Of a stretch of 64,000 nucleotides of DNA, positions 3,086 through 64,000 are shown piece after piece. Source of the stretch: a virus; IMG/VR virus record IMGVR_UViG_3300027822_000297; one strand, 5' to 3'. A program made the position numbers and the translations under genes. The first letter of the stretch is position 1. Every line of letters starts with the position of its first letter. The notes below the pieces were generated by a model that ran no database searches, was not told where the DNA came from, and worked only from the letters and a program-made list of their open reading frames with translations.

Positions 3086-3156
3086 TGACGTTAAATTAAA
3101 CGAGGATGTAATGTGGATACAATGCAAGCATTTTTGATTGGCGAGGCAAAGAGCAA

Positions 3157-3670: not shown

Positions 3671-3920
3671 AAACCAGTGGCTCCGTAATTTAAGACTATG
3701 GAGCAAGGTTATAGTCCGATGGGGGCCAGGAATTATAAATTCTGAGGTTAAAATAGTTAGCAAGATAAACACACAAACTATAGAATTAGAAGGCAGTTCT
3801 ATTAGTTATAGTTTGTTTTCTGGGTTATCTATCGGTAGTGAGGGATGGGATGAGCAGGTATGTTTAGAAGAAGCAACATCAGAAAGATTAGAAAAATATG
3901 AATTTAAAAAAATACAATAG
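3660..3920 (+). CDS. Hypothetical phage protein
   Basis: 86-aa ORF. Confidence 0.5.
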   Translation: MMHKNQWLRNLRLWSKVIVRWGPGIINSEVKIVSKINTQTIELEGSSISYSLFSGLSIGSEGWDEQVCLEEATSERLEKYEFKKIQ

Positions 3921-3944
3921 TGCGTAATAGTTAAATAAATAGTT

Positions 3945-4196
3945 ATGGTGATAAAAATGGCTAAGTTAAAAGTTTATGGTGGATTAACATTTGTTAATGG
4001 AAAACAACTAAGAACAATTATTGCAGAAACATCACAGAAAAAAGCAAGTAAAAAGCTTGGTATTACTCTTGGAGATTTACGTAATTACTGGAGTGCCACA
4101 GGAAACAAAATTGAGGTTGATATGGCAACCAGTAAGCCTGGGTTTGTTTTTAAGGCAAGTACCAGCATGGGTAGTGATTTTAAGTTGGATGAATAA
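3945..4196 (+). CDS. Small phage protein, possibly DNA-binding
   Basis: KLKVYG...GKQLRTIIAETSQKKASKKLG...RNYWSATGN pattern seen in phage ORFs. Confidence 0.6.
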   Translation: MVIKMAKLKVYGGLTFVNGKQLRTIIAETSQKKASKKLGITLGDLRNYWSATGNKIEVDMATSKPGFVFKASTSMGSDFKLDE

Positions 4197-4246: not shown

Positions 4247-4678
4247 ATGAATTTTGAAACTGAAGCCGATCGTTGGGATCATGTAAATTCTTTAAAAAGC
4301 GAGGGGTTATCTAACAGTAAAATAGCAAAAATAATAGGTGTAAGTCCTGATAGAGTAAGGCAGCTTATAGCTAAACATGGGAAACAAATAAAGCAAGAAT
4401 GTGGTTGGAGTGCTGGACTAAAGAGAATAACGGCAAATTTGTTAGAAAGGAATGGGTATCAATCACGAAAGGCAGTCTATTTGTCATTCAAGACTAAGCA
4501 GCTTATGAAAGACGCTAGGATAGGTCCGGCCACTTATAATGAAATAGCAGCATGGCTAGGCGAGCCAGAAAAGGAGATATATAAAGCATCGCCAGATTAC
4601 ACGGTTGAAACAGCCATAAAATTTTTAAATAAACGAGGTTATGAGGTAAAAAAACGTGAACGATTCAAGATCATTTAA
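4247..4678 (+). CDS. HTH DNA-binding protein
   Basis: GLSNSKIAKIIGVSPDRVRQL helix-turn-helix; second domain resembles RNAP alpha-CTD (RIGPATYNEI). Confidence 0.6.
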   Translation: MNFETEADRWDHVNSLKSEGLSNSKIAKIIGVSPDRVRQLIAKHGKQIKQECGWSAGLKRITANLLERNGYQSRKAVYLSFKTKQLMKDARIGPATYNEIAAWLGEPEKEIYKASPDYTVETAIKFLNKRGYEVKKRERFKII

Positions 4679-4782
4679 ATGTTTTTTTAGAATATTGATA
4701 TTAGTGTCAACGGGGATGATTTTAGGTACTTTGCTTGTTATTTATTGCATGTATTTATTGGGTATTACTGGCTATTGGTTAT

Positions 4783-4821
4783 AAAAAATAACTTGCATTT
4801 ATATCTATGTTTTGTTAGACT
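4783..4821 (+). promoter_or_regulatory. Repeated phage promoter, copy 2
   Basis: AAAAAATAACTTGCATTTAT; TTGCAT-17-TAGACT. Confidence 0.75.
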
Positions 4822-4846
4822 AGATGAAAATTAACGAGGAAAATAA

Positions 4847-5782
4847 ATGAATGAAGTTGAAAAAAAGACAGATGTAGTAAAGGATAACTTTGATAAATGC
4901 GTCGAATTAGCAAGTGAAATTATAACTAACAAAGGTTATAAGATCGATCCTACCGTTCAGGTTCAAAATATATTTAATTATGCATCGACGGATGATAAAT
5001 TCAAGCTTGTTATAACATCGACAGACCAGCGTGTTTTAGCTGAACTAAGAAGCCAAATAAAATTCGTTTGTGAACTTGGCTTAGATACGGCAAAGGGAAG
5101 AAAGCTTGTTTATGTAAAAACACGCGGTGTAAACATAGGCACTAGACAGCAAGCGCAATGGCTAACTGTTCCAGATATAACCATATCATATCACGCACTA
5201 ATTCACGTGCTTATTAGATCAAAAGCATTAAAACACATTACTGTACTACATACTTACCAAAATTATGATGTTGAATATACCGGCGCACTTTCGGATGTTC
5301 CTGTTGTTAGGTCGTGGAAGACAAGTCCAAGTGAGCGCGGTGAATATACGGGTGTGTTTGTTATTTTAACGTTAGCGTCAGGTGAAACAGAAACTAGTTT
5401 TTATCATTTAAAAGACATCTTGGCTACACATAAGGCGTTTTCTAAGTCATCTCAAACATGGGATGCGCATAAGTTAGCGATGGTTGCTAAATCAGCTATC
5501 ATGGAAGCGATACGTTATATTCCTGTTTTTGATAATACTGTAGCAACGGTTATTGAAGATTATGATCAATCGCATGATTGGGGATCGGTTAAAGATGTTT
5601 CGGAAGATAGTAGGGATGAAATGACTGACGATCGATTTAATGAGCTATTTAGTCAATGGGAAGATTCAGTTAATCAAAATAAATTCACAATACCGCAATT
5701 ACTGGAAAATTTAAAGAAAAAAACGATTCTTAATGAATTGCAAATAAAAAAAATAAAAGGAATAAAAAATGCTAAGTCATGA
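4847..5782 (+). CDS. recT: RecT/Bet-family single-strand annealing protein
   Basis: ISYHALIHVLIRS, GVFVILTL and W.....MVAKSAI..AIRYIP motifs; position before exonuclease and ssb. Confidence 0.75.
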   Translation: MNEVEKKTDVVKDNFDKCVELASEIITNKGYKIDPTVQVQNIFNYASTDDKFKLVITSTDQRVLAELRSQIKFVCELGLDTAKGRKLVYVKTRGVNIGTRQQAQWLTVPDITISYHALIHVLIRSKALKHITVLHTYQNYDVEYTGALSDVPVVRSWKTSPSERGEYTGVFVILTLASGETETSFYHLKDILATHKAFSKSSQTWDAHKLAMVAKSAIMEAIRYIPVFDNTVATVIEDYDQSHDWGSVKDVSEDSRDEMTDDRFNELFSQWEDSVNQNKFTIPQLLENLKKKTILNELQIKKIKGIKNAKS

Positions 5783-6554
5783 ACGGAATGGTTTAGTAAC
5801 GGGGTCGAATGCACATAGAGTTATGGCTGGCTGGCGCGATGAATTGGAGTGCAATAAGTATGTATTTGAGCCATTTGATGGTTGGGAGATAGCTCATAAA
5901 CTTATATTGGGCGGAACAACGGCGATAAAAGACATTAAGCCGCATGTTGATATTAATATGGAAAAAAAGGAGCGCATATTAAAATTAATTAAATCACAAG
6001 ATAAAACACTATCAGATGGAATGTATGGTTATGCAATGGAGATAGCCATGAATCATTTTGTTGAAACTGTCGAGGAAGGTTACAAAAATGAAGCTATGGT
6101 TAACGGGGAAATTAATGAAATGGCTTCTGTCGCGGCTGCTGAAAGGTATTTGGGGTTCGAATTTGATAACACAGGCGATGATCAAGATTTTTATAAGTTA
6201 GATGATATTGGTTTAACACCAGACGGAGTAAAATATAATGAATCATTTTTACTTGAGTGTGGTTTGGAAGTTAAAAGTCCCACACAAAAAGTACATTTCT
6301 ATAATGTAAATAATATTAAAACACAGGAAGATTTATTAAAGTATCATCCTGTTTACTATTGGCAGTGCATGGCTGGACTTGCTGTAACTGGTGTAAACAC
6401 ATGGCATTGGTTTAGCCATAACGATTCATTTATCGATAAAATGAAATTAGTTTATGTGAAAGTTGAGCCGATAGAGGAACAAATAGAAATCTTATTAAGG
6501 AGGGCAAAGATAGTGAAAGGGTTGTCTAATGACATAATAGAAAAATTGAAATAA
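5769..6554 (+). CDS. YqaJ/lambda-exonuclease-like recombination nuclease
   Basis: TGSNAH..MA N-terminus; GLTPDG..GLEVKSP PD-(D/E)xK; YYWQC motif. Confidence 0.85.
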   Translation: MLSHERNGLVTGSNAHRVMAGWRDELECNKYVFEPFDGWEIAHKLILGGTTAIKDIKPHVDINMEKKERILKLIKSQDKTLSDGMYGYAMEIAMNHFVETVEEGYKNEAMVNGEINEMASVAAAERYLGFEFDNTGDDQDFYKLDDIGLTPDGVKYNESFLLECGLEVKSPTQKVHFYNVNNIKTQEDLLKYHPVYYWQCMAGLAVTGVNTWHWFSHNDSFIDKMKLVYVKVEPIEEQIEILLRRAKIVKGLSNDIIEKLK

Positions 6555-6567
6555 ACGAGGAAGAAAT

Positions 6568-6966
6568 ATGTTAAATAAAATATTTTTAATTGGCAATGCG
6601 GTTGCTGATCCAGAAACAAAACAAATGCCGAATGGTAATGCAGTTACTAATCTAAGGTTAGCAACATCAAGACGATGGAAAGACAGTAACAATGTAAAGC
6701 AAACTGAGACAGAATACCATCGTATCGTATTTTTTAATAAGCTTGCAGAAATAGCTGGCGAGTATGTTAAAAAAGGAAGGCAGTTATATATCGAAGGTCG
6801 TATAAAGACAACGAAATATACAGACCCAGGCGGCAATGATAAATATAGTACTGAAATTATAGGGAATGAAATGCAAATGTTAGGTCGTCGTGATGACCAA
6901 CAAACATCTAATCCACAATATAGTTCAGGCAGTCCAGATTTGCCTGATGATGACATTCCTTTCTAG
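6568..6966 (+). CDS. ssb: Single-stranded DNA-binding protein
   Basis: LNKIFLIGN..DPE, TEYHRIVFF, KGRQLYIEGR, acidic DDDIPF tail. Confidence 0.97.
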   Translation: MLNKIFLIGNAVADPETKQMPNGNAVTNLRLATSRRWKDSNNVKQTETEYHRIVFFNKLAEIAGEYVKKGRQLYIEGRIKTTKYTDPGGNDKYSTEIIGNEMQMLGRRDDQQTSNPQYSSGSPDLPDDDIPF

Positions 6967-6970
6967 TTTA

Positions 6971-7063
6971 ATAAAATACCCCCAGTATCAGGCAAAGAAT
7001 ACTGGGGGCATAGTGACCATGACTAAACGAGACTGAGGAAGAATGGTCAATTAAATTTTAGCA
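6971..7063 (-). ncRNA. Candidate ~78-nt antisense sRNA displaying anti-RBS sequence
   Basis: Extended -10 TG-C-TAAAAT (7063-7055); TGACCAT/ATGGTCA stem with a 22-nt loop; CCCCCAGTAT/ATACTGGGGG terminator followed by TATTTT on minus strand. Confidence 0.55.
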
Positions 7064-7087
7064 CAATTTTAAATAAATGTTATAGGC

Positions 7088-7351
7088 ATGGCATTCATAA
7101 CGTTAGCATTGTTATATAAAACTGGGGTGAGCTTATTTATTATCCTTCCTGTTTTAGTATATATTGGTTTGGTCTTTTATATAAAACCCATAGTTGTAAT
7201 AATAGCTTTTGTAATTTATTTGTTGGCAATGATGTTAAATATTGGTTTTTATAGTTCAGTAGAACACGCATTGTTTTCTGGTTGGATTGATGCCTTAGCA
7301 ACTTTAATAATTTTTGTTGTGGTGTTAATGCAGAAAAAACAAAAAATGTGA
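7088..7351 (+). CDS. Small multi-pass membrane protein
   Basis: Almost entirely hydrophobic, basic C-terminus. Confidence 0.65.
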   Translation: MAFITLALLYKTGVSLFIILPVLVYIGLVFYIKPIVVIIAFVIYLLAMMLNIGFYSSVEHALFSGWIDALATLIIFVVVLMQKKQKM

Positions 7352-7992: not shown

Positions 7993-8321
7993 TGGAATCG
8001 GTCAGGTTTTTTAATAAGGATTTGACCGACTTTTCCTTGGATGATTCAGGTCGAACAGTTATTGTAGGCGCTTTGAATGATGAGGAAGCAATGAGTATTA
8101 TTACTTTTTTAGAGGCTGAGAAAAATCAATTAACTGAAGAGGTAAAAAAATATAAAAACATAGTAAGAACCTATGATGGAATAGGAGCGTTAAGCCGCTG
8201 GATCGTTCGATTAATGGGTTTTGATTTCGATAGTAGTGATGTTGAATTAAATAAACAACAAACTGTTTTCTGTGGGATTTGTGATGTTGTTTTTTTGAAT
8301 AAATTAAAAGATAAGGGTTGA
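7992..8321 (+). CDS. Hypothetical protein
   Basis: TAATG coupling gives a start at 7992 within the listed ORF. Confidence 0.55.
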   Translation: MESVRFFNKDLTDFSLDDSGRTVIVGALNDEEAMSIITFLEAEKNQLTEEVKKYKNIVRTYDGIGALSRWIVRLMGFDFDSSDVELNKQQTVFCGICDVVFLNKLKDKG

Positions 8322-8681: not shown

Positions 8682-9041
8682 ATGTTTGAAGAAAAAAAAC
8701 ACCCACAAAGAACAGTGACTCAAAATGCTAGTTTGCATAAATATTGTACATTACTGTCTGACGGGATGAATGATGCAGGCTATGATCAACGCATGGTAAT
8801 AGAGCAATTTAAGGAAGGATTCAATATACCCTGGACAATGGAAAGCGTAAAACATATATTCAGAATAATAGCAAAAGCAATGTACGATTGTAAGTCAACG
8901 GCTGATCTTGATACCGTTCAAATTCAAGAGGTTTACCGTGTATTTGATGCGCGAATGAGTGAAATAACAGGTATAAGTATAGCGTGGCCGAGTAAGGATG
9001 CAATGATTGAAGAGGCAAGGAATGCTGAATTACCAAAATAG
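8682..9041 (+). CDS. NinB-like recombination accessory protein
   Basis: RT..QNASLH N-terminal motif and ST..L...Q...Y C-terminal motif. Confidence 0.65.
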   Translation: MFEEKKHPQRTVTQNASLHKYCTLLSDGMNDAGYDQRMVIEQFKEGFNIPWTMESVKHIFRIIAKAMYDCKSTADLDTVQIQEVYRVFDARMSEITGISIAWPSKDAMIEEARNAELPK

Positions 9042-10152: not shown

Positions 10153-10198
10153 GTTAAAAAATTTGAAAATAGATAGTTTAATTAAACGAGGGATTTAT

Positions 10199-49253: not shown

Positions 49254-49751
49254 TCATTTATATCCTTTAAATAGCCGTCTCCAGACCCAAGGTGGCATTG
49301 GATTTTTTTTATGCCATAAACCCATACCTTGTTTGCGTGCCTTTTCTTCAGCTTCGTAATATGATTTATCTCTAGCAAACCTAGGTTCTACCCAGGCAGC
49401 ACCAACGCTAACCATTCGTTTATTAATATCTTGACCTTTTAAATAAAGCCTTACTACATCGCGGTCATACGTTCTTTTGCCTGTATGCTTTAATGTAACG
49501 ATTTTTTGATGGATTAAGGTTTGTAATGTTCGTTTACTGAATTGACCGTATTGTTGACCTATCTCTGGCGCATCTATATCAGCTAAACGTATTTCTGATT
49601 TTTTATTATTTCTGCTTAACACAATAGCGCCATCACCATCTATTACACGTACAACGGCATATTCTTTGGGCCGGTTTATAAACGATATTGCGTCCCATGA
49701 CCAAAATAAAAGAACTAAAGCCATTATGGAAAAGATTATTATTGTTTGCAT
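49254..49751 (-). CDS. Thermonuclease (SNase) family secreted nuclease
   Basis: VVRVIDGD, IRLADIDAPE..Q.YG, YDR, A....GLW....P.PPW.WR. Confidence 0.92.
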   Translation of the reverse strand: MQTIIIFSIMALVLLFWSWDAISFINRPKEYAVVRVIDGDGAIVLSRNNKKSEIRLADIDAPEIGQQYGQFSKRTLQTLIHQKIVTLKHTGKRTYDRDVVRLYLKGQDINKRMVSVGAAWVEPRFARDKSYYEAEEKARKQGMGLWHKKNPMPPWVWRRLFKGYK

Positions 49752-50023: not shown

Positions 50024-50456
50024 TATCTGCGTGATCTTCCCATTCTCTACGAAATTTTAATGCTTGTTGAAAAGCAAGTAAATCCATTTCTCCATCGTAT
50101 TTGTTAATATTGCAAACTCTAAATGTTTTACCGTATTTTTTGCCTTTATGATCAATCCAGCTAACACCATAAACGAGATAAGTTAAATTTTTCCTATTAT
50201 CATGGCTATGCGTTTTACATACGCCCAATACGCCAGTTGATTTGTTATTTGTCGCAGCTTTTATAGCTCTTCTTTTGGTGTTTTTTAAAATAACTAACAT
50301 TTGGTCACGCCAGTTATTTGCAGCCTTAAATGCGTTTTTACGGCCACCCCATGATTTATATGCAAAGTAACGGGTGAATTGCTTATGTCTTCTGACAATC
50401 TTTACTTGAAATCCGTTTTTGTCTGGTTCGCTTATATTTTTTCTTGATAAACCCAT
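49956..50456 (-). CDS. Tandem AP2-domain DNA-binding protein
   Basis: FQVKI.R.....YF.....GG...A...A..WRD and NKSTGV.GV......W.D..GK...K.F. Confidence 0.7.
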   Translation of the reverse strand: MGLSRKNISEPDKNGFQVKIVRRHKQFTRYFAYKSWGGRKNAFKAANNWRDQMLVILKNTKRRAIKAATNNKSTGVLGVCKTHSHDNRKNLTYLVYGVSWIDHKGKKYGKTFRVCNINKYDGEMDLLAFQQALKFRREWEDHADNDTLHLFDPSTYQNWREEKIDK

Positions 50457-50652
50457 TATTACAAATGCAATTCTCTTCTAATTTGTCTATTTCCGGCAGC
50501 CATAACCATAAAAGTATTGATAAACCAAATAAAACATCCTGATCATTGAACCCATCCCAATAAAGCCCAGCAAATGACAACGCTGTAACAATAATTCTAT
50601 TACCGTGCTTTATTAGAAACTTAATTCTTGTGTTATCATGGTTAGCGGCCAT
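50383..50652 (-). CDS. Small membrane protein
   Basis: AAACGAGGG RBS; two hydrophobic segments. Confidence 0.5.
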   Translation of the reverse strand: MAANHDNTRIKFLIKHGNRIIVTALSFAGLYWDGFNDQDVLFGLSILLWLWLPEIDKLEENCICNNGFIKKKYKRTRQKRISSKDCQKT

Positions 50653-50941
50653 ATGTTCCCTCGTTTCACATGTGGCTAGAGCCTCTGGTTTTAATTAATC
50701 AGGGGCTTTTTAATTTAAAAAATATTTAATCCATATAAAAATATACTTTCCGATAGTGTAAATAATATCCTTGGTTATCAAGGCAAGTAGCATAGCTATA
50801 AAAATATCAGCGCCGGTCATTCTGTTTTCCTTTTTAATGCATTAAGTTCTTTGATTCTGCACATAACTACAATAATCATTCCTATAATGCTGATAATGCC
50901 AGGAAACCAGTTATCCCCGAATAATAATGATATAGAACCAC

Positions 50942-51296: not shown

Positions 51297-52847
51297 TTAA
51301 CTTTCGTTTGCTAGTTTAATTACCTCAGATTTAGATAAAGCCCTATTATATAACCTTATGTAACTTATTTTGCCTTTGAAGGGGCGTAATGATACTTTTG
51401 TTGGACTGGCACCAACCCAAACAGGCGCTTTACTTTGCGATATATTTCCTGATTTACGCATGTTTCCTACTTGTTTACCATCTTTAAACAGAAACATAGC
51501 GCTACCGTTATAAACAGCGGCAAAGTGAATCCATTTATTATTACTTAAGTTGCCTGATGAGGCAATTAATGTATGAACCTTGCCGTTTGTTTTAAGCCGG
51601 AATCGTAATCGTGTTTTTGAACCGACACTAACAGTGCTTACCATCCAGTTATGTTGATTTTCTTTAACTCCACTTGCTTTAGATATAATCCTACAATCCC
51701 GATGTTTACAGTTTTTTAGGTTTTCTGAATTAAACCAGCCAGAAATAGACATAGTTTTCCCACTTAAATTGAATCGTCCTGCATCCATATAGTCGTTTCT
51801 ACCGCCAAAACGAACACCATTACCCATAATCCTAGCGCCATTTATTAACTTTCCGTTACGGCCATTTCCTGAAAGGTCTTTAATTGTTCTCCCGCTTCCT
51901 TGCATATCCCAAAATGCGAATAGTTTATTGTTGCTAATTGGTGATTTAATTTTAGGTTTAGGTTTATTACCTGTTATGGTTATAACTTTTGGTGTAGATG
52001 AGGTTTTAGGTTTTGTAGTAACTTTAGGCTTGCTTGATGTTTGTGTTGGTTTATTTTGTGTAGGTTGTACTTTACCTTTTGATGTTGAGCTTACAACAGA
52101 ATAACCGTTTGAACCCGCCGCTATTTTAATATTATCAATAAAAAGTTGACGACGATTTGAGTCCGTAGTCTTTCTTCCCTTTTTCCAGTCTTTTTTATAA
52201 ACCCCCATCTTAAAGTAAGGTGCCCTCATAGCCTTACCACAGCCATCTGTTTTGGGTGAGTTAGGCCCGGTAACCTTACCCAGTTTTACACCGTCTTTCC
52301 ATGCTTCGATAAAACCATCACCGCCAGATGATATCTTGAAATGGACAACAATATTTAACCATTTTTTCTTTTCTATGGGACCTTTCCAAAGAACTTTTTT
52401 TCCATAAGTATAAAATATTGCCTCGTCATTTCCCGAACGCATTAAAAATGGAGCTGTCTTTGCTGGGAACCAGACGGTGCAATCTAGAGCCCAGGAGCTG
52501 GCTGCTGTATGTATCTGAAAAGGAGCTAATTCCAGGCTTTTGTCTTTTTTCCAATCTTCATACCGGTAATCAAAACTAAACCAATATTCTTTACCAAATT
52601 CAAAATGACCACTACCATCTTTCATAGTAGCTTCTGTACGATACGGTGTGCGCATACTTCGGGTTAATGTGAAATTACCTGAATATTTTCCACTTGCTTT
52701 TGGTGATGTGGCTACAGTAGGCCAATTCCCAGAGCCTCTTAATCCACTCACATTACCTGTTTCGAAGCCGTTATTGTATATAAGTGTTGCTGCATTTAAA
52801 TTTCCAATAAGAAATATTGAAAATAAACTAAAAATAATTTGTTTCAT
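51297..52847 (-). CDS. Secreted polysaccharide-lyase-like protein with a LamG domain
   Basis: Signal peptide; RTE, EYWFSF, QIH, W..IVVH...S....G.IE.W.DG, PYFKMGVY; Thr/Lys/Pro linker; W.HFAAVYNG...F.DG LamG. Confidence 0.8.
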   Translation of the reverse strand: MKQIIFSLFSIFLIGNLNAATLIYNNGFETGNVSGLRGSGNWPTVATSPKASGKYSGNFTLTRSMRTPYRTEATMKDGSGHFEFGKEYWFSFDYRYEDWKKDKSLELAPFQIHTAASSWALDCTVWFPAKTAPFLMRSGNDEAIFYTYGKKVLWKGPIEKKKWLNIVVHFKISSGGDGFIEAWKDGVKLGKVTGPNSPKTDGCGKAMRAPYFKMGVYKKDWKKGRKTTDSNRRQLFIDNIKIAAGSNGYSVVSSTSKGKVQPTQNKPTQTSSKPKVTTKPKTSSTPKVITITGNKPKPKIKSPISNNKLFAFWDMQGSGRTIKDLSGNGRNGKLINGARIMGNGVRFGGRNDYMDAGRFNLSGKTMSISGWFNSENLKNCKHRDCRIISKASGVKENQHNWMVSTVSVGSKTRLRFRLKTNGKVHTLIASSGNLSNNKWIHFAAVYNGSAMFLFKDGKQVGNMRKSGNISQSKAPVWVGASPTKVSLRPFKGKISYIRLYNRALSKSEVIKLANES

Positions 52848-52908
52848 AAATTTACCTTTGTTAATATTACAGTAGTAATATAACACAAGAGTAATTAAAG
52901 TCTATAAA

Positions 52909-54039
52909 TTATCTTTCTGGTGCTTTACTTAATTCTTTATCAACTAATTTAATATTGGAAATGTCTTTATTTTGTACAACTTTGTTTATTTGTATATTCA
53001 TCACATCCCTTACAACTTTATCTTGAGATTTTGGGTTGATATATTTTTCTGCATAAGCTTTTATAGCTTTTTCATGACTTATTAGTGCTTTGAGTTGGGG
53101 TTCTGATTTAGCTATAGATTCTCTATCGTGTGAATTTAGTTGAGTTCTTATTTCCTTTTCTCGTTGACCATCAATTGAAGTTTTTTTTTGAACTTTTTCC
53201 GTTGGTTGGCTTACACTGGGTTTTTTTTCTTCGTATTTGTTTGTTTTCTCATTTTTTTCAATAGTATTTTCAGGTTTTAAGGATTTTAAGTCTTCTTTAC
53301 TTGGAATATGGCCGCTAACTTCCATTCCTCTTGATTTTGCTTCCCGCCAGACATTAGACCTAAATTCTTTTGTTCCTTGAATATTAATAGATGTAACACC
53401 CTGTGAATCAAGAAGTTTTATCATATCTTTATGAGCTGTTATATTACTAGACTTAGTTGTTAATTTACTGCCATGATCCCTAAAAGCAACTTTCTGGTTA
53501 TGTCCTGCCCATCTATATTGATTTTTTTGATCAACGACATATCGTTTATTAAAATTATCATCTAAATCATGCGCTTTATTTTCATCAATTTCGATATGTT
53601 TGATTTCAAATTCAGGTTTACTTGTTTCATGATTTTTGTTTTTTAGTTTTTTAGCCTCTTCTACAACCTTGTCGTGATGCTCAATGTCTTGTCTATGTTC
53701 TGATGATAGTGATTCAGATTTATCTTTAATATTATTTATTTTGTTTGTGAATTTATCATCATTACTAAACTCAATCTTAACGCCTTTATATGAATCACTA
53801 GTTGCCTTAGTGTCACTTTTAGATTTATTTTTTAACGAGGCTTCAATGATTTTTTCATTTTGTTCAATTCGTTCCTTTCGTGATAAATCAACATTCTTTT
53901 CAGATTTAAGCTGATCGGGTATGTAGTTAGAAACTTGATTGGGATTACTATTGTTTCGTGTTGAAGGCGGAACTAGCGTTGTATTCCTAGGCGGTTGCTC
54001 TTGATTTAAAGCATCAAGACTATCATTTTGTTCAGCCAT
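52909..54039 (-). CDS. LPD7 (large polyvalent protein domain 7) protein
   Basis: AFRD.GSKL.T......DM..L....G...I.I.GT.EFR..VW.EA..RG.EV.G. Confidence 0.75.
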   Translation of the reverse strand: MAEQNDSLDALNQEQPPRNTTLVPPSTRNNSNPNQVSNYIPDQLKSEKNVDLSRKERIEQNEKIIEASLKNKSKSDTKATSDSYKGVKIEFSNDDKFTNKINNIKDKSESLSSEHRQDIEHHDKVVEEAKKLKNKNHETSKPEFEIKHIEIDENKAHDLDDNFNKRYVVDQKNQYRWAGHNQKVAFRDHGSKLTTKSSNITAHKDMIKLLDSQGVTSINIQGTKEFRSNVWREAKSRGMEVSGHIPSKEDLKSLKPENTIEKNEKTNKYEEKKPSVSQPTEKVQKKTSIDGQREKEIRTQLNSHDRESIAKSEPQLKALISHEKAIKAYAEKYINPKSQDKVVRDVMNIQINKVVQNKDISNIKLVDKELSKAPER

Positions 54040-54160
54040 TACAGTTCTCCAATCGATTTCAAATATTCAATAGCTATTTTCATTGATTCTTCATCAGATA
54101 AAACTTTTTGGTCTTCATCGAAGTGATCATTAAACCATTGTGTAAAAAGAAAATTAGTAT

Positions 54161-55933
54161 TCATGCCATTTCTCCAATTGCATTTAAATATTGTTCAGCA
54201 CAAGCGATACTTTCATCATCACTTAAAACCCTAACTTTATTGTATATAGGCATTTCAAGATCATTTATATCAACTTCTATTGTTTTCATTTTGGCTTTTA
54301 TTTCTAAAGTTTGTTTAACTTCTAATAAAGGTATTTTAGGCGGTGGAAATTCATTATTTTTTAAGCGTGGATCGGTGTACCAGAAAATCCGATCAGCATA
54401 AATAGCTTTAAGCCCTTTTAGGAAAATGAGACATTTATCTGGTGGCATTTCCTTGATTTCTTGAGGCAACATTAATGGTCTTTTTGTCTCAGATATATTT
54501 TCGTGTTTAGGGAAAATACCAGACCAAGCTCTATTGGTTGATTTTTGTTCAATTGTTATTGTTCCAAGGTCTTCTGATAATTTATTGGCTGTTTTTGTGT
54601 TATTTGGTGTTAAATACCCTTTAATATCACAATTATCTTCTATATGTTCTGCAAATTGTTTATAGACGGCATATAATTGGGCTGTTCCTTGTGCGACAAG
54701 CATTAATTGAATTCCATACCCAGCTATAAACTCAATTTTTCTTGCCACTGTTTCCATGTAGCCAACAGAAGTAAATTCATCCATCATAAACAAACAATTA
54801 TGTTTGTATTTTGGGTCTCTGTCTTTGGGTACTTTTAAATTTAAATCAATAGCCATTTGAAAGAATAAATTAACCATTGGGCCTAGTTCAACTAATGAGG
54901 CTGGTGGAATGGCAACGTAAATAGACATTTTTTTATATTTAATATCTCTCAAATCAAAAGAACTATTTGATGTGGCCGCATCTATAATTGGGTTGGCAAA
55001 TATATTCAATGTTGAAGCAAGCTGTTCTTGAACGCCACCCCTTGTTTTCTCTGGTAAATTAATAAAAGAATAAAGGTTCATTTTGCAAATAGGATCAAGA
55101 ATATCTTCATGTTCTTCAATCATATCTTTTAAATATTCGTTTGTTTTTTGTTCGGTATGAAGCATTCTAAATATTTGACCAAAAGAACATGTTAATGCAG
55201 GGATGTCTTTTGCCATTAATGCTAGGCCTTCAAATAGCTTTCTGGCTCCACCCGTCCAGATTGGATCACCGCCAGGCGGTGTTGGTGCTAAGAAGTTACT
55301 CACTTTTTGAAGGAAACTAATTCTGTTTGCATTGTCCTCTGGCATGTAGTCGAAAACATTAAAACAATCGGAATGCTTATCCTCAGCGATGAAATTAAGA
55401 AAATGTATGTCTTGCCCCATACGCTTTCTAAACCCTGCTGTTTTGTAAAAATTTTCCTCTTTTATATCAATGCTAATTATTGATCCCAGCCAAGTGAAAA
55501 ATATAGGAACAACCCAACTTACACCCTTACCTGCTCTTGTTGGTGCTTTTATTAATATATGATAATCACCATCAACAATGAGCTTTAATTTACCTAAATA
55601 ACCTAAGAATATACCTTGTACATTTTTTTTATATCGCTTAATGAATTCCCAGCCATAAGCAAAACGCGCTGAGCCATGTAATTCGTATTTATTACGCCCA
55701 ATAGCTATTAATACAGCAGTTAACGGCACTAAACCTACAAGGTGAGAGATAATTGCTTTGAAATGAATTTCTTTGCTTGACGAGAGAAAACTATAAAGGA
55801 TTGGATTAAAAAACCAAGCGCTATCTATTGATAATAAAATTTTAAAAAGTAAGCCCGCGATAACGAAATGAATAAGTGACGTGGCAATTATTAAGTTGCG
55901 TGGCCTATGTTTTTCAAGCGCGTCTAATGACAC
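54161..55933 (-). CDS. virD4: Type IV coupling protein VirD4/TraG
   Basis: HILIKAPTRAGKG, DIKEEN, FMMDEF, AGYGI, S.DLG.IT, RPLM.PQE. Confidence 0.95.
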   Translation of the reverse strand: MSLDALEKHRPRNLIIATSLIHFVIAGLLFKILLSIDSAWFFNPILYSFLSSSKEIHFKAIISHLVGLVPLTAVLIAIGRNKYELHGSARFAYGWEFIKRYKKNVQGIFLGYLGKLKLIVDGDYHILIKAPTRAGKGVSWVVPIFFTWLGSIISIDIKEENFYKTAGFRKRMGQDIHFLNFIAEDKHSDCFNVFDYMPEDNANRISFLQKVSNFLAPTPPGGDPIWTGGARKLFEGLALMAKDIPALTCSFGQIFRMLHTEQKTNEYLKDMIEEHEDILDPICKMNLYSFINLPEKTRGGVQEQLASTLNIFANPIIDAATSNSSFDLRDIKYKKMSIYVAIPPASLVELGPMVNLFFQMAIDLNLKVPKDRDPKYKHNCLFMMDEFTSVGYMETVARKIEFIAGYGIQLMLVAQGTAQLYAVYKQFAEHIEDNCDIKGYLTPNNTKTANKLSEDLGTITIEQKSTNRAWSGIFPKHENISETKRPLMLPQEIKEMPPDKCLIFLKGLKAIYADRIFWYTDPRLKNNEFPPPKIPLLEVKQTLEIKAKMKTIEVDINDLEMPIYNKVRVLSDDESIACAEQYLNAIGEMA

Positions 55934-56915
55934 TTTCTAACCCCCATTTAGAACCATGTTTTCCGCAATGCATGATAATATCAATGGTTTTTCTGCAATA
56001 ATCATTAACATCTTCTTTTTTTAAATTACTTCCAGCAGGTGACATTTTTATCATCGTAACCAATCGATCATAGACGTGTTCAGCAGAATTAGTATGTAAG
56101 CTTGTTATTGCCCCGTTATGGCCTGTATTAGTGGCGTTCAGATAATCAAAAGCTTCAGAACCTCTTAGCTCACTTAGCAATATTCTATCGGGTCTTAAAC
56201 GAAGGCAACATTTAATAAGTTCGGCAAAAGTTACCGGTTCTTTCCCAGTTGCTTTCTGGCTGGTTAATAAATTAACTATATTTCTTTTTTTATCAATTTT
56301 ATCAACTAAAACTTCCCTTGCATCTTCGATGGTTATTAGTCGTTCATGATGATTAATATAGTCAATTAGGCAATTAGTGAATGTTGTTTTGCCTGCACCA
56401 GTACTTCCAGAAACAATAATAGTTTTTTTTCCTTTAACTGCCGCAATCATAAAATTAGGCCAATCATTTCGTTTTTGATAAAAGTCTAACTTATCATCTG
56501 TCTCTGATCGTTCTTCAATGTGAGCCATTTCATTAACATGATCAAAAAACCCCTTTTCATAATAATCATCCAAAGTGTATTTTTTGGCAGCAGGTTTTCT
56601 GATGCAAATCACATATTGTTGTAAATCACATGCGGGAGGTATAACAACTTGAACACGCTCACCTGATGGGAAGGTTGCAGATAAAATAGGATTATTACTG
56701 TTTAATGTTTGATTTGTGTAATTTGCTGTAAGTATTGCCCCTTTTTTTAAGAATTCATGCGTAAAAACTTTATCTTTGTCGTTGTATCTCTCTATAACGC
56801 CATTTGTTTCAATAAAAACATCATGAGGCCCATTAATCATAACCTCATTAACATTATCTTGAGCTAAAATATCCTCTAGAACACCATTCTTCCAAATGTC
56901 GAGCATCCTTGACAT
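55914..56915 (-). CDS. virB11: T4SS ATPase VirB11
   Basis: NEVMIN.P, SGSTGAGKTT, TIEDARE, LRLRPDRI..SELRG, TGH.G..TSLH. Confidence 0.95.
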   Translation of the reverse strand: MSRMLDIWKNGVLEDILAQDNVNEVMINGPHDVFIETNGVIERYNDKDKVFTHEFLKKGAILTANYTNQTLNSNNPILSATFPSGERVQVVIPPACDLQQYVICIRKPAAKKYTLDDYYEKGFFDHVNEMAHIEERSETDDKLDFYQKRNDWPNFMIAAVKGKKTIIVSGSTGAGKTTFTNCLIDYINHHERLITIEDAREVLVDKIDKKRNIVNLLTSQKATGKEPVTFAELIKCCLRLRPDRILLSELRGSEAFDYLNATNTGHNGAITSLHTNSAEHVYDRLVTMIKMSPAGSNLKKEDVNDYCRKTIDIIMHCGKHGSKWGLESVIRRA

Positions 56916-57724
56916 TATTTAACTCCTATAACAAAAACTTCTGATAAATTAATTTGAATAACTTTTCCAGATCCATTTGTAACTGAACTTTCATCATAAA
57001 GCGTTACTTTTTCAATATTGCCAATATCGTTTGTTATTCCTAAAATTGGCGTGAGTTTTTTTCTTTCCTGTCTTACCCGTGTATCAATTCCTCCCTTAAG
57101 TTTTTTTAAGTATTCTTTTAATAACGGCCTTGTTACCCCTTTTTCAACTAGCCTTTCAGCAATCTTTGGTTTTATGCTGTATATCTTTTCAAGGTCATCG
57201 GCTATTGAGATTGCCGTTATATTTCCTTTTTTACATAGCGCTTTAAATTTATCATCTGTTGAATGAATCTTAAGGTGTCTTGATACCCAACTTGAATCAT
57301 AATTAACGATTTTTGCTAATTCATTATTATTTAATGGTTCATTATTGCTTGCATTGTAATGCTCTTGAATAAGCTTTAGTTGCCCTCCTATCTCAAATAT
57401 TGTGAGATTTTCACGGCGCATATTTTCTGAAAAGGTGATAAGTGGATTGTCATTTTTAATTACACAATCTATCGTATCCAACTCAGCCAGCTTAGCCGCA
57501 CGCCAACGCCTTTCACCGGCGGTTATATAATAAATGCCATTTTCATCAGCCTCAGTAACAGCTATTGGCTGAATCTGTCCAATTTCAGGATTTAAAAATT
57601 CATCAGCTAATTCTCTAAGGTTTGTAAATGTTTTTCTACCTTGCTCTCTGGATTTAATTTTATTAATAGGTAATGTTATATAATTCTTATTCTCTTCGGA
57701 TAAATCTAAGTCTAATTTAAGCAT
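56915..57724 (-). CDS. parB: Partition protein ParB
   Basis: GQIQPIAV, ITAGERRWRAA, EN.RRENL, HTH. Confidence 0.9.
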   Translation of the reverse strand: MLKLDLDLSEENKNYITLPINKIKSREQGRKTFTNLRELADEFLNPEIGQIQPIAVTEADENGIYYITAGERRWRAAKLAELDTIDCVIKNDNPLITFSENMRRENLTIFEIGGQLKLIQEHYNASNNEPLNNNELAKIVNYDSSWVSRHLKIHSTDDKFKALCKKGNITAISIADDLEKIYSIKPKIAERLVEKGVTRPLLKEYLKKLKGGIDTRVRQERKKLTPILGITNDIGNIEKVTLYDESSVTNGSGKVIQINLSEVFVIGVK

Positions 57725-58463
57725 TTGTTAACTCTTTTTCGTTTATCTTTTCTACCATCGCATTCATAACACCTATTAATTGATGTGATGCTTGTTTTAT
57801 GTTGCCGTATTGTGGGGTTATATTCCATAATGGGGTATGTCCATTCATTACTGATGTATAAGGTGTTCTTTGTGAAAGAAACGGTAAAATTTTGTTAGGA
57901 TAGTTAGAAATAAGCTGGCCTAATGCTATCTTGTGTTCTTTTGATAACCCACTAACAAAGTTAGGCATTAGGCCATACACATCTGTATGTGATGTTTTAT
58001 TAACTTTTTTTATTGTTGAAATTACGTTACTAACTCCATCTAATGCAAAATCACCCATATTAATAGGGATAAAAGCGCCATCTGATAATGACAATACAGC
58101 AAAAGTTAATTTTGATAGAGTGGGTGCCGTATCAAAAATTATATATTCATAACCTATTTCTTTTAATAATTCCTTGTTGGAATAAATAATCTCTCGATAA
58201 ATAGTGTTTACAGCTAAAATGCTTCTTGTTGAGGGAAAAACAAGTAAGTTAGTTAGCTTAATGTTATTTAGTTCTTTAGTGAAAAAATCGATAGCTAATG
58301 TTTTCGACAAATAAGGTTTAAAGAATCGCGTTCCATTCCCTTGCCCATCTGCATCTATAAAAACAACCTTATTTCCTAGCTCTGTTAAGCGGTGTGCTAA
58401 ATGTGTGGCATAAAATGTTTTCCCAACACCACCTTTTTCATTTGTAATTGTGATACCTTTCAT
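57717..58463 (-). CDS. parA: Partition ATPase ParA
   Basis: NEKGGVGKT, IDADGQGN, IFDTAP. Confidence 0.92.
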   Translation of the reverse strand: MKGITITNEKGGVGKTFYATHLAHRLTELGNKVVFIDADGQGNGTRFFKPYLSKTLAIDFFTKELNNIKLTNLLVFPSTRSILAVNTIYREIIYSNKELLKEIGYEYIIFDTAPTLSKLTFAVLSLSDGAFIPINMGDFALDGVSNVISTIKKVNKTSHTDVYGLMPNFVSGLSKEHKIALGQLISNYPNKILPFLSQRTPYTSVMNGHTPLWNITPQYGNIKQASHQLIGVMNAMVEKINEKELTNA

Positions 58464-59602
58464 TCCAGTTCATCCCTATATATATGCGTGAAATCAAGCT
58501 TCCTGGCTACAAAAACATTTATTCTTGCTCCATGATGAGCGTGGCCTGTTGGTTTTATTTTTAGGGCTTGCTCTAAGGCCATTTCAGATGATCGGTTAAA
58601 ATTAGCTTTGACATCTTGAATAGCTTGGGAATTGCCATCTGTTACCACACCAGCAGCAGCGGAAACGCCAGCATTAATAACTGATAATAATATTGAAGAA
58701 CCGAAACGTTGCCAAAAATGACTATCAATAAACATATGCTGTCCTGACCGTCCTAAAGGTCCAACACTTGGTGAATTAATATTAATAACATGCCCATCTT
58801 TGGTCATAACGGTTTCCCAAACAATAAATAATCTATTCACACCGAAATCAATACCACTTGCGTATTGTCCTATTAATCGGCTGCCACCAGGAATTAAGAC
58901 ACGCTGTCCATCCTTAGCGCGTTCTGAATAAACGTCACTACTTACTATTGCTCGTATTTTTCCAGGCAAAGACGAATGTATGGAAAAATCCAATATTGCC
59001 GGTATAATTTTCCCAGGTAACATTTTCATGTCTAAATGTTTTTCTAAGTAAGCGAAAGATTCATCTAATTTCTTAACATTTAATCTATCCTCTAATGTTG
59101 GCTCAGGCTCTTCTTGCGTTAGTGATTTAACTCCACTTAAGACTTCATTCATGTATTTACCTCGATCAAAACCTGCTGTGTGTTGACTTGGTGGGACTGG
59201 ATAACGATTGTCCTTTTTTTCTTTTTTATTTGTCCCCTTACTAACCTGTTTGTATTTATTTTTAAATTCCTCATAAACTATAGGTTTTTTTTTATGCTCA
59301 TGTTCCACATCTTTAGATTCCATGTCTTTTTCAATTTCCACAAGAGTTTGTTTCGCAGGTTCTTGTATATATTGACTAAACAAGGTGTTTTCTTCTACAA
59401 CGTCTAAAAACTCATCCTTTTTGCCTTTATTTTCTTTTTTATTACCATCACCACCCATGTTGAATAACACATAAATAAAAAGCAAAACTAAAAGAAAAAC
59501 AATAATATTTTTATTAAACCAATTTTTCTTCTCTTTTTGAACATTTCTGTCTTTTGGTACATAAATATCATCTTCGTTGTTTTCATTATCAATGAATGCC
59601 AT
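58460..59602 (-). CDS. virB10: T4SS core protein VirB10
   Basis: G.IIPA.L...I.S.LPG...A.V..DVY, IP.GS.L.G.Y, R.F.VW, GR.G, FW.RFG..IL. Confidence 0.93.
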   Translation of the reverse strand: MAFIDNENNEDDIYVPKDRNVQKEKKNWFNKNIIVFLLVLLFIYVLFNMGGDGNKKENKGKKDEFLDVVEENTLFSQYIQEPAKQTLVEIEKDMESKDVEHEHKKKPIVYEEFKNKYKQVSKGTNKKEKKDNRYPVPPSQHTAGFDRGKYMNEVLSGVKSLTQEEPEPTLEDRLNVKKLDESFAYLEKHLDMKMLPGKIIPAILDFSIHSSLPGKIRAIVSSDVYSERAKDGQRVLIPGGSRLIGQYASGIDFGVNRLFIVWETVMTKDGHVININSPSVGPLGRSGQHMFIDSHFWQRFGSSILLSVINAGVSAAAGVVTDGNSQAIQDVKANFNRSSEMALEQALKIKPTGHAHHGARINVFVARKLDFTHIYRDELE

Positions 59603-59605
59603 TAG

Positions 59606-60418
59606 TTATCCTTTTTCTTTAATAAAAGATTTAGGCTTTTTAAAACCATTATTAATAAGACAAACAGCTTCATCCCCTCTTCGTAATACAAATTTAGGTT
59701 TAATTGCTTCAATAACTAGATAACCACAGTCGTCTTGATGGTAATTAACTATTGTTTCGATGTTATCTTTACCCACAGCTTTTATGGATGAAAATTCACC
59801 ATCAATTAATAAATAAGTAAATTTATCGTCATTAAACATAAAGGTCGGTCTTAAATTCATTGACCCTTCAGCATCATATTCAAAATTAACGTTATCTAAG
59901 TTTGGAGCGCGGCAAGTTTTTAATTCTTTTCTTTTTCCCTTTTTTGCCAGCTTTTTTTCTTTTTTTCTTTCTTTAAGTTCGGCTCTAAGCCTAGCTTCGC
60001 GCGCAAAAGCAATCTCGTCACCAGGGTAATCAAATTTAAGCCGGTATGTTAAGTCTTTAGGTATTTTGCTTTTTTTGCCATGCGGCGGCTTAAAAGTGAA
60101 ATAATATGATCTTAGATTAGTATCAAACGTCATGTTTGTTGCTTCGCCTTTAGTTCTAGGCCAAACAATAACTTTATTTTTTTTGCTATCAAAATAAAAA
60201 ACACCTTCCATACCAAATTTAATAGTATCTTTTTGAACAATCTCATAAGGTGCAGTTATTATGTGTATGAAATATCCAAAGTGGCTCGATAATGGATAGG
60301 TTTCATTTTCATCATAAGTCACAACCTTTAGGCGAGAATCAGACAATTGATCCATTAGTTGCCTTTCAGCATAAACAGGTAATGAAAATATCAGTAAGAT
60401 AATTATATTTTTAATCAT
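59606..60418 (-). CDS. virB9: T4SS core protein VirB9
   Basis: D.R.K...YD, TN....T..RSY, NF.Y, P..MFND.KFTY, VNY...VIE...LR.G.E.VC. Confidence 0.9.
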   Translation of the reverse strand: MIKNIIILLIFSLPVYAERQLMDQLSDSRLKVVTYDENETYPLSSHFGYFIHIITAPYEIVQKDTIKFGMEGVFYFDSKKNKVIVWPRTKGEATNMTFDTNLRSYYFTFKPPHGKKSKIPKDLTYRLKFDYPGDEIAFAREARLRAELKERKKEKKLAKKGKRKELKTCRAPNLDNVNFEYDAEGSMNLRPTFMFNDDKFTYLLIDGEFSSIKAVGKDNIETIVNYHQDDCGYLVIEAIKPKFVLRRGDEAVCLINNGFKKPKSFIKEKG

Positions 60419-61158
60419 GTTCTTTTCTCGTTTTCTGCGTTTTGAATGTAACTTTCAACCATAAAACCATGTGGATTTCTTTCACGTCTTTCCGCATTAG
60501 TAGGTATTGATTTGTACTTATAAGTTAATGTTATTTTTATTGGTATATCAGGTTTAATTTTTAACTTTTCTGTTTTAGGTGTGTTCGGTGTCAGGATTGC
60601 GTGAGTAATAACAGTAAACTTATCTTCACTTAATGGAGTCATGGTTACTATTGATACATTTATTTGGCCTAATGCCTTGATAATGCTTGCTGGGCCTTTG
60701 TCATTTTTGGGATCAACATAATTAATATATTGTCTAGCTATTCTGGAATTTGACATTGCTGCAACACATTTTAAATTATCATTTCTTTTAGCTAAGGCAT
60801 ACCCTTCATAACATTCAATAAAGCGTCTTACATCAGCTTTTAAGAAAAGTTCTTGCTGCGAAATAGATAATGGCTCGCCTACTCTGTAAAGCGTCTTTAA
60901 TGCTCTATAACCTGTTCTTGAATCAATTTCTTCAACTTGAATATAATGATTAGATTTAGAAGCCATGAAGATAACACCGATAACAGAGATGGTTGTTACT
61001 ACACCATAAATAATTTCTCTTATTTTTGATCGTTTTAGGCGATCCGATAAATTTTTAAAATTATTCTCTTCCCATCGATTGCCTAGATCGACTAATTCTT
61101 GAGCAGATATTTCTCTTTGTGGTATTTTTTCTTTAAGCCGCCGTATTTTTTCAAGCAT
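60415..61158 (-). CDS. virB8: T4SS protein VirB8
   Basis: Single TM; FI..YEGY, R..NP.GF.V.SY; start moved to ATG 61158. Confidence 0.88.
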   Translation of the reverse strand: MLEKIRRLKEKIPQREISAQELVDLGNRWEENNFKNLSDRLKRSKIREIIYGVVTTISVIGVIFMASKSNHYIQVEEIDSRTGYRALKTLYRVGEPLSISQQELFLKADVRRFIECYEGYALAKRNDNLKCVAAMSNSRIARQYINYVDPKNDKGPASIIKALGQINVSIVTMTPLSEDKFTVITHAILTPNTPKTEKLKIKPDIPIKITLTYKYKSIPTNAERRERNPHGFMVESYIQNAENEKRT

Positions 61159-61279
61159 GTGTTGGACCGATTGGTTGCTTGTTATAACAAGAGCAAGGTG
61201 ATTCTGGGTCTTTAAGATCAGAATCAAATACAGCACAGCCTGATAAAAGTAATATTGCTAGTAATAAAATAGGTTTCAT
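61151..61279 (-). CDS. virB7: VirB7-like lipoprotein (42 aa)
   Basis: Own translation MKPILLLAILLLSGCAVF...; LSGC lipobox; position before virB8. Confidence 0.7.
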   Translation of the reverse strand: MKPILLLAILLLSGCAVFDSDLKDPESPCSCYNKQPIGPTHA

Positions 61280-61322
61280 AAGTATCCTTTTGTACAGTTG
61301 TAATAAATAAAGTTAAATTTTT

Positions 61323-61799
61323 TTAGTTTCTATGGATTAGGTGGTTGTTAATTTGATTATTTTGATCTTCAATTTTCTGTTGTTCGTCATTTATTAAATT
61401 ATGAAATCCATTTTGATAAAACATTACTTCTTGTGATGTCCACTCGTCAAACCCTGTTTCATTAAAACGCCTTTTATTCTTATATTGATCTAGGCGATAT
61501 TCTCTATCAAAATATTTAAGCTCAGCGCGTTTCTCAAGCCATCCATAAAAAGGGCTTATCCAGCGTAACAACAAATCAAATAAGTAAAGTAAGAGTCCTG
61601 ATGCGGCACTAATAACGCTATGCTCCAGAGCTTTCATATAAAGAATTTCGTTCCCACCAGATACAGCAAATAATAAACAAATAATTGCGCCTATACTAAA
61701 TAATATGATTCCTATTTTTAATAAAAAGGTTATCGGGTATTTAATAATGTAAAGAGGTATTGAAAAAAACCATCTTAAAATGATAAAAATAAACCTCAT
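61323..61799 (-). CDS. Inner-membrane protein of unknown function within the vir operon
   Basis: Two or three TM segments; coupled to virB6. Confidence 0.65.
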   Translation of the reverse strand: MRFIFIILRWFFSIPLYIIKYPITFLLKIGIILFSIGAIICLLFAVSGGNEILYMKALEHSVISAASGLLLYLFDLLLRWISPFYGWLEKRAELKYFDREYRLDQYKNKRRFNETGFDEWTSQEVMFYQNGFHNLINDEQQKIEDQNNQINNHLIHRN

Positions 61800-62710: not shown

Positions 62711-62711
62711 A

Positions 62712-63539: not shown

Positions 63540-64000
63540 TTTTTGCTTCCTCCAGATAAGGTTTTTCCCATTTATCATCCCCATACTTTTCAACACATTC
63601 TTCAAATATATGAATTAGGTTTTTTCCTGCTGAAGCATAAGGAAGATATTCTTTTATTTTCTCTAAATTAAAATTATGAACAGATGATTTATTTCCTTTT
63701 TTTAATACAAATCGCCTTGATCCGCGCGTTGATGTCTTTATAATATTAAATTCTTTTCTTGTTGTTTTAAATCGCTTGTAATCTTCATATTCTGCCTTAG
63801 GATTAGATAAAAATATTGATGTACCAATTTGTTCTACAATGGTTTTAGCAATTTTTGAATCGATAGCATCAGAAGGTGATTGACTAGTAAAAATATACAT
63901 AATATTTTTATCCCTATCCATTTTTAATCCTTTTTTCATTTTATTGACGAAATAATCATCTTCCAACGTTTGATGAAATTCTTCAAAAACAATCATACTT
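63532..64000 (-). CDS. virB4: T4SS ATPase VirB4, C-terminal part
   Basis: FEEFH Walker B region, F.SQSPSDA, IFL.NPKA..EDY, T..EF.II. Confidence 0.9.
   Translation of the reverse strand, partial: SMIVFEEFHQTLEDDYFVNKMKKGLKMDRDKNIMYIFTSQSPSDAIDSKIAKTIVEQIGTSIFLSNPKAEYEDYKRFKTTRKEFNIIKTSTRGSRRFVLKKGNKSSVHNFNLEKIKEYLPYASAGKNLIHIFEECVEKYGDDKWEKPYLEEAKNV

Follow-up and report, generated by a model that had tools for sequence, protein, structure and literature searches.

The short spacer downstream of ssb in an uncultured phage raises the question of whether its minus strand encodes a small RNA and, if it does, which transcript that RNA would pair with. A preliminary description of this DNA proposed that a minus-strand unit at 6971-7063 displays a loop complementary to a recurrent ribosome-binding leader, and that the resulting RNA acts in trans to silence a regulon of phage genes. 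The window that we analysed is a stretch of 64,000 nt, which forms part of a 74,191-nt metagenome contig and has a G+C content of approximately 34%. A siphovirus-like temperate phage, uncultured to date, occupies the window from ~1 to 50,700. Its replication operon, which encodes a DnaD-like initiator and a helicase loader, runs leftward, and a long early region runs rightward with genes for RecT (4847-5782), a YqaJ exonuclease (5769-6554), SSB (6568-6966), Rha, a Mom homologue and tRNA-Glu; the late genes include those for terminase, portal, major capsid protein and tape measure. The ssb gene (6568-6966, plus strand; PF00436, E = 1.7e-36) closes the RecT-YqaJ-SSB module, and the proposed unit, which we call unit A, converges on its 3' end from within the 121-nt spacer that separates ssb from an 87-codon ORF (orf87, 7088-7351). 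After the phage, the same contig encodes on its minus strand (51297-64000) a VirB/VirD4 type IV secretion system (VirB5, B9, B10, B11 and D4) together with ParA and ParB. The nearest plasmid counterpart of VirD4 is only ~34% identical, and the whole element may be a phage-plasmid or a phage fused to a conjugative element.

The extended -10 element, the 7-bp stem and the strong terminator that had been described for the minus strand are all present there. The putative promoter (7083-7055, minus strand) comprises the -35 hexamer ATAACA (7083-7078), a 17-nt spacer, a TG extension (7063-7062) and the -10 hexamer TAAAAT (7060-7055), which amounts to a 9/12 match with the TG and predicts a transcription start near 7048. 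The 5' hairpin (7049-7014) is built on a perfect Watson-Crick stem of 7 bp, TGACCAT/ATGGTCA, in which 7049-7043 pairs with 7020-7014. Its loop of 22 nt (7042-7021), UCUUCCUCAGUCUCGUUUAGUC, does consist of two halves around AGU, as the preliminary description stated, and holds an anti-SD element, UCUUCCUC, and an anti-tag element, CUCGUUUA. The intrinsic terminator (7011-6967) comes next, with a stem at 7011-6976 of 14 pairs, six of them G-C and two G-U, followed by UAUUUUAUU in a U-rich tail (6975-6967) that ends just past the ssb stop codon. A U tract accompanies this stem on the minus strand and none on the plus strand. Among the terminator-like sites in 60 kb, this one ranks first, and it opposes a long run of plus-strand genes, with the nearest credible upstream gene on the minus strand 4.8 kb off.

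Both kinds of signal are uncommon in this DNA when held to a strict standard. Extended -10 sites occur at ~0.5 per kb per strand, and just nine in the window (both strands, 128 kb of strand) are accompanied by a -35 hexamer matching at 4/6 positions or more. Strong terminators, defined by at least 8 pairs and at least 4 G-C pairs, number six in 60 kb on both strands. Two of these six have an extended -10 element no more than 200 nt upstream, namely that of unit A, at a distance of 44 nt, and one at 50678-50709 on the plus strand, at 39 nt. The -35 region of unit A (ATAACATTTAT) resembles a repeated early-promoter element, ATAACTTGCATTTAT (3047, 4783 and 15244, plus strand), minus its TTGC, a likeness that may be due to chance in AT-rich DNA. 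A small protein encoded on the minus strand of unit A was considered and rejected, as the only candidate is a 20-codon ORF with a TTG start and no Shine-Dalgarno sequence.

To say that the loop is complementary to the phage leaders is only to restate that the plus strand carries an additional tag copy in sense orientation; the question that matters is therefore transcription of the minus strand, not its complementarity. The tag itself, AAACGAGG, occurs eight times against 1.13 copies expected, a count that was reached by 0 of 100 shuffles, and every copy points the same way as the genes around it. In seven of these cases, a plausible ATG follows after 5-10 nt, and no copy falls within the structural gene block; the eighth, at 4631, is located in the terminal part of an ORF and is followed by a frame of just two codons. 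A second element, GAGGAAGA, is found in five copies against 1.18 expected. Tagged leaders precede RecT, ssb, orf199, the gene at 10199, o35, o68, o89 and a mini-ORF of the early operon. The positions previously listed for the tag (~3098, 4833, 7375, 10184, 15298, 19250, 19871 and 50660, the last on the minus strand) hold up, with the qualifications that 19250 carries the variant AAACGAGA and that the copy at 4631 had gone unlisted. We take AAACGAGG to be a near-ideal complement of the 16S rRNA tail (UAAGGAGG), but with a fixed C; the window contains no rRNA gene. The working tagged leaders are mostly unstructured.

The sense strand opposite unit A carries its own version of this arrangement. 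At 7024-7054 (plus strand), a tag copy that reads TAAACGAG-ACT-GAGGAAGA is followed by the mini-ORF ATG GTC AAT TAA (7043-7054), which has three codons and is in frame with orf87, two TAA codons lying between. Unlike the working tagged leaders, the tag copy at 7025 sits between the arms of a perfect stem, in which its AUG is paired. Tag-plus-mini-ORF sites number three in all, the other two being at 3098-3137 (plus strand), where a tag copy that heads the rightward early operon is followed by ATG TAA and then by an 8-codon ORF, and at 4631-4649 (plus strand), where the tag copy within the end of ORF 4247-4678 is followed by ATG AGG TAA.

These features of the plus strand bring in an explanation that does without a small RNA. 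The locus could be a sense-strand relic or junction, in which a tag copy with a dead start codon was left by the joining of the orf87-orf199 cassette to the ssb module; the large hairpin would merely lend stability to the ssb mRNA 3' end, and the promoter-like elements and U tract would be accidents of AT-rich DNA. The tag copy of unit A has the same sense orientation as all others, and the mini-ORF, in frame with orf87 and broken by the two stop codons, fits this account as well. Sigma-70-like hexamers are common in the window and show no enrichment over shuffles. Furthermore, the plus strand also folds well (-25.6 kcal/mol, z = -4.0), compared with -29.7 kcal/mol (z = -4.7) for the 91 nt of the minus strand, which is a small gap of ~4 kcal/mol, and the two G-U pairs belong to the antisense strand only.

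A close relative from a JGI metagenome (L137, 95% identical) adds to this account. Its contig ends inside ssb, and its homology to the window sets in 25 nt ahead of ssb and breaks off at the start codon (ATG) of the gene in the RecT position. When L137:1560-1800 and 3900-4030 are set against window 4700-4940 and 6468-6600, the edges of homology fall exactly at tagged leaders; the promoter and the TTAACGAGG leader are kept, and RecT and YqaJ are replaced by proteins of 222 aa and 542 aa. Tags placed exactly at mosaic junctions support a junction origin for unit A, and the tags at these junctions fit either a regulatory role or crossover points. However, a relic leaves unexplained why the U tract, the G-U pairs and the TG-extended -10 element are all on the minus strand and at the right spacing. 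The similarity to the ssb leader, moreover, ends at the motif: a duplication of the ssb 5' region as the origin of unit A was rejected, with an alignment score of 22 at approximately the 97th percentile of random windows. A second locus, described below, is unrelated and repeats the arrangement with a strongly antisense-specific fold, which an accidental origin of unit A also does not explain. Taken together, we regard an explanation without any small RNA as doubtful.

That second locus, unit B (50631-50717, plus strand), was found independently and presents promoter, hairpin and terminator in the same order as unit A. Its extended -10 element (50631-50639), TG-T-TATCAT, lies within codons 5-8 of the opposing gene o89 and is preceded by a poor -35 hexamer, with transcription predicted to start near 50646. 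The 5' hairpin (50647-50677) has a 10-bp stem, including two G-U pairs, and an 11-nt loop, UCCCUCGUUUC (50657-50667), which has the exact complement of the o89 AAACGAGG tag at its centre. The intrinsic terminator (50678-50717) directly follows the hairpin and combines a 13-bp stem, three pairs of which are G-U, with a U-rich tail. The opposing gene, o89 (50383-50652, minus strand), is an orphan for which we found no homologue; its ATG is at 50652 and its tag at 50666-50659, so that the start region faces unit B. It shows a coding signal in frame 0 only and encodes a protein of no more than moderate hydrophobicity; a 74-nt overlap with the following gene is apparently why gene calling passed it over. 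Further along the o89 operon, its fourth gene (49254-49751, minus strand) encodes a 165-aa protein with a hydrophobic N-terminal segment and a match to an endonuclease-family PHROG, and we take its motif to resemble that of staphylococcal nuclease.

The two units agree in where the predicted RNA begins as well as in the order of their parts. In each, transcription would begin within the opposing ORF, 6-7 nt from its start. The complement of the AUG is base-paired in the first hairpin of the RNA, and the loop exposes the anti-tag; the distance from the -10 element to the opposing AUG is 10 nt in unit A (AUG 7043-7045) and 11 nt in unit B (AUG 50652-50650). A scan of the 64 kb on both strands for an extended -10 element followed by a hairpin and a U tract recovered A and B only. 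Markov-random sequence, however, yields 0.67 weak units per 64 kb at equally loose thresholds, which means that two units are not a significant number and that the count alone proves nothing. What carries the argument, therefore, is how strong the structures are, how they are associated with the tag and how the two strands differ. Common descent of the two units was rejected, as they share no alignable similarity beyond the motif, and the repeated design could thus be a coincidence.

Strand asymmetry is clearest in unit B, where the antisense strand folds at -30.3 kcal/mol (z = -5.6) with five G-U pairs and the sense strand folds weakly, at -15.9 kcal/mol (z = -1.6). Where antisense helices were transferred in mirror image to the sense strand, the resulting energies were disregarded; non-canonical pairs are not meaningfully scored in this way. 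Based on the folds and the G-U pairs in both units, we favour the antisense strand as the strand of function. This bears on a further possibility, that the sense hairpin displaying the tag is itself functional, serving either to bind or to decoy a factor specific for AAACGAGG leaders, for instance a phage translational regulator or the 30S subunit, or as a site at the DNA level. The perfect 7-bp stem would show the tag in a loop on either strand, and the authors who described a comparable motif in Cluster K mycobacteriophages, the start-associated sequences (SAS), left a protein or RNA partner open (PMC3203893). Yet the G-U asymmetry points to an antisense-strand RNA, unit B forms only a weak hairpin on its sense strand, and we identified no candidate RNA-binding regulator in the window. 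The DNA operator version was rejected, given that 10 copies of the half-site TGACCAT, with 7.2 expected, do not amount to an enrichment. We therefore consider a role for the sense hairpin to be very unlikely.

If the minus strand is transcribed, the next issue is which transcript the RNA would meet first. The predicted pairing of loop A with a perfectly complementary sense transcript amounts to -39.5 kcal/mol, compared with -9 to -17.4 kcal/mol for the tagged leaders, among which the RecT leader reaches -17.4 and the ssb leader -15.1 kcal/mol; across all 45-nt windows, the 1% tail begins at -15.8 kcal/mol. Loop B gives -18.5 kcal/mol for its cis duplex and -10.7 to -15.9 kcal/mol for the leaders, with a 1% tail at -11.0 kcal/mol. 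Its best leader is that at 10184, in which 10 nt are matched at -15.9 kcal/mol, placing it in the top 0.1% of windows, and overall the ranks of the tagged leaders among the windows of this DNA lie between the top 0.1% and the top 10%. Because the sense transcript pairs far more strongly than the leaders, it would be the first target.

The ssb leader tag (6552-6564, plus strand), TAAACGAGGAAGA, is the best match of loop A in trans by length, with two overlapping 8-mers, and is conserved in L137. It does contain exact complements of both loop halves, in agreement with the preliminary description; these overlap by 3 nt (GAG), however, which makes simultaneous full pairing of both halves impossible. 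The best joint pairing comprises 13 bp and leaves 6 nt of the RNA bulged out.

These energies bear directly on the original proposal that the RNA of unit A, perhaps with that of unit B, pairs through its loop with AAACGAGG on many leaders, blocks their SD sequences and silences them jointly. Several observations speak for such an activity: the tag is strongly enriched and placed where an SD sequence belongs, the tagged leaders are unstructured and hence accessible, and the anti-tag is exposed in the loops of two separate units. Loop B matches the canonical 8-mer exactly and extends to 10 nt of the 10184 leader, loop A has its two exact 8-mers against the ssb leader and its -17.4 kcal/mol pairing with the RecT leader, and there is no real gene opposite unit A, which makes a purely cis role of this unit harder to see. 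In the fullest version of this proposal, which we think improbable, the phage would operate a translational circuit of RNAs that relies on a private extension of the SD sequence: the two anti-tag RNAs would address AAACGAGG on eight or more genes of the early and accessory sets, RecT and ssb among them, and shut them off jointly. Such a shut-off, no more probable than the circuit of which it forms part, might for example silence the tagged genes in the lysogen or bring early expression to a close. On this view, unit A would have begun as a cis-antisense unit, lost the gene on its sense strand and persisted because of its role in trans, an origin to which we likewise give little credence. Were the proposal true, one short RNA motif would address a whole set of phage genes at the level of translation.

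In contrast to this scenario, most of the loop-leader energies (-9 to -14 kcal/mol) fall within the top 1-10% of windows, where hundreds of sites are equal to them, and a fully complementary sense transcript would out-compete the leaders. Any antisense RNA opposite a tagged start carries the anti-tag automatically. A relative provirus (G001), whose major capsid protein is 75% identical and which is the one phage relative with an early region that could be read, lacks both the tag leaders and the unit. We therefore judge joint silencing in trans to be unlikely. Of the earlier proposal, a small RNA gene on the minus strand is the part that gains support, favoured by the rare combination of promoter and terminator, the second unit and the G-U pairs; the silencing of a regulon does not fare as well, with leaders at -9 to -17 kcal/mol against -39.5 kcal/mol for the sense transcript.

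Since both units start inside the opposed ORF and expose an anti-tag loop, we instead read them as encoding cis-acting antisense RNAs. We propose that unit A is one of two cis-encoded antisense RNA genes of the P22 sar, lambda OOP or IstR-1 type, a tentative assignment drawn from sequence to which we give a probability of about 0.48. In both units, the opposite-strand promoter, as judged by consensus only, is so placed that the RNA would cover the SD sequence and the AUG. Both also possess an intrinsic terminator that would give a discrete short RNA, with stems of 14 and 13 bp and U-rich tails on the antisense strand only. The antisense RNA of unit A would be ~78 nt in length, running from 7048 to ~6970 on the minus strand, and that of unit B ~71 nt, from 50646 to ~50716 on the plus strand. 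Each RNA would pair first, loop to loop, with the perfectly complementary sense start region, thereby keeping ribosomes off it, and the long duplex would probably be cut by RNase III. The target of the unit B RNA would be the start of o89, and that of the unit A RNA would be the tag-plus-mini-ORF hairpin at the ssb-orf87 junction. Because both loops carry the anti-tag, a weaker cross-reaction with the other tagged leaders is possible as a secondary effect.

Under this proposal of cis-encoded antisense RNAs, the gene controlled through unit A is likely orf87 (7088-7351, plus strand), which encodes a very hydrophobic protein of 87 aa with several membrane spans and shows a coding signal but no Shine-Dalgarno sequence. 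A homologue that is 82% identical, of equal length and with the same start indicates from sequence comparison that orf87 is real and conserved. A plus-strand terminator (7998-8029) closes the orf87-orf199 cassette. Given that orf87 lacks an SD sequence, is conserved and hydrophobic and has its own terminator, and that the AUG behind the tag is held in a stem, we propose a ribosome-loading role for the mini-ORF: as a conjecture, ribosomes bound for orf87 and the following orf199 would use the tag-plus-mini-ORF hairpin as a standby or coupling site. That the tag or mini-ORF has a bearing on orf87 translation is conjectural, as the ATG of orf87 lies 45 nt downstream and no significant structure is predicted at the orf87 start region. 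A second tiny ORF, ATG TTA TAG (7077-7090, plus strand), ends 2 nt ahead of the orf87 ATG, which means that two mini-ORFs precede orf87.

Searches for relatives of the locus returned little beyond L137. The unit A element had no match among INPHARED phages or PLSDB plasmids, nor did the JGI metagenomes yield a homologue of it, and a scan of IMG/VR with the loop pattern gave 70 hits, all attributable to chance, mostly in coding runs and 0 with a hairpin; the terminator pattern gave 0 hits. The nearest SSB proteins are at most 59% identical in IMG/VR and at most 63% identical in GTDB representative genomes, and blastn and nhmmer detected no similar DNA at those loci. Relatives of orf87, orf199 and o166 were absent from IMG/VR. 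With the covariance models of Rfam 15 (C4, sar and all others), only tRNA-Glu passed the gathering score in the window, and hits near units A and B were at chance level (E 0.07 to 8). An 8,106-nt ENA contig, however, encodes an SSB that is 91% identical (P0002) along with the 82% identical orf87 homologue (P0009), and should hold the homologous ssb-orf87 spacer. In the provirus G001, ssb is 51% identical and lies just 8 nt before the next gene, and the provirus has neither unit A, a unit-B homologue nor tag leaders. On the reverse strand at ~8757-9000 (G001, L249), AAACGAGG does appear three times, only inside a coding tandem repeat of 78 or 156 nt.

If both RNAs are real, this temperate phage controls two accessory cassettes by antisense RNAs of one plan, and would provide a clean, testable example beyond the enterobacterial model phages. 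Among those models, the sar RNA of P22 is 68-69 nt long. Its promoter lies at the beginning of the gene that it regulates and fires in the convergent direction, and its sequence complements the arc-ant intercistronic region and ribosome-binding site (PMC12197685). The proposed unit A resembles sar in size, in its place between two cistrons and in its mode of action, but shares no sequence or Rfam similarity with it and opposes a 3-codon ORF instead of the regulated gene's own start; in addition, two units here share a loop motif. The OOP RNA of lambda is a 77-nt antisense RNA directed against an early operon, ends at a strong terminator and forms a duplex that is cut by RNase III (PMC12197685). 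Unit A is of similar size and likewise converges on an early gene; whereas OOP reaches into the 3' end of cII, unit A ends narrowly short of ssb and spans the junction downstream of that gene, and the two show no homology.

Type I toxins, which are small hydrophobic toxic peptides usually of less than 60 aa, offer another point of comparison. IstR-1 blocks the distal standby site of tisB, and RNase III cleavage follows (PMC6690012). The small size and very hydrophobic character of the orf87 product, together with the lack of an SD sequence, recall IstR-1/tisB and other type I pairs such as hok/sok with mok. In contrast to these, the orf87 product, at 87 aa and with several membrane spans, exceeds the usual size of type I toxins, and no significant inhibitory structure is predicted at the orf87 start. 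The c4 RNA of P1 and P7 exposes loops complementary to a ribosome-binding region and acts by pairing (PMC12197685), which makes it the model for pairing of the phage leaders in trans; c4, however, is processed from its target's own operon and has one target, and no Rfam match to C4 was obtained here.

For the tag itself, the closest parallel is SAS of the Cluster K mycobacteriophages, an asymmetric private motif that includes an SD core, lies a few nucleotides before mostly ATG starts, and is confined to non-structural genes and nearly always to one orientation (PMC3203893). Like SAS, AAACGAGG is recurrent, has one orientation and an SD core, and is found near starts; the likeness is one of behaviour and not of sequence, as SAS is the 13-bp GGGATAGGAGCCC and belongs to another host and phage type. 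To our knowledge, no antisense RNA has been linked to SAS. The RNAs of units A and B, if real, would supply a physical partner for an analogous private ribosome-binding tag.
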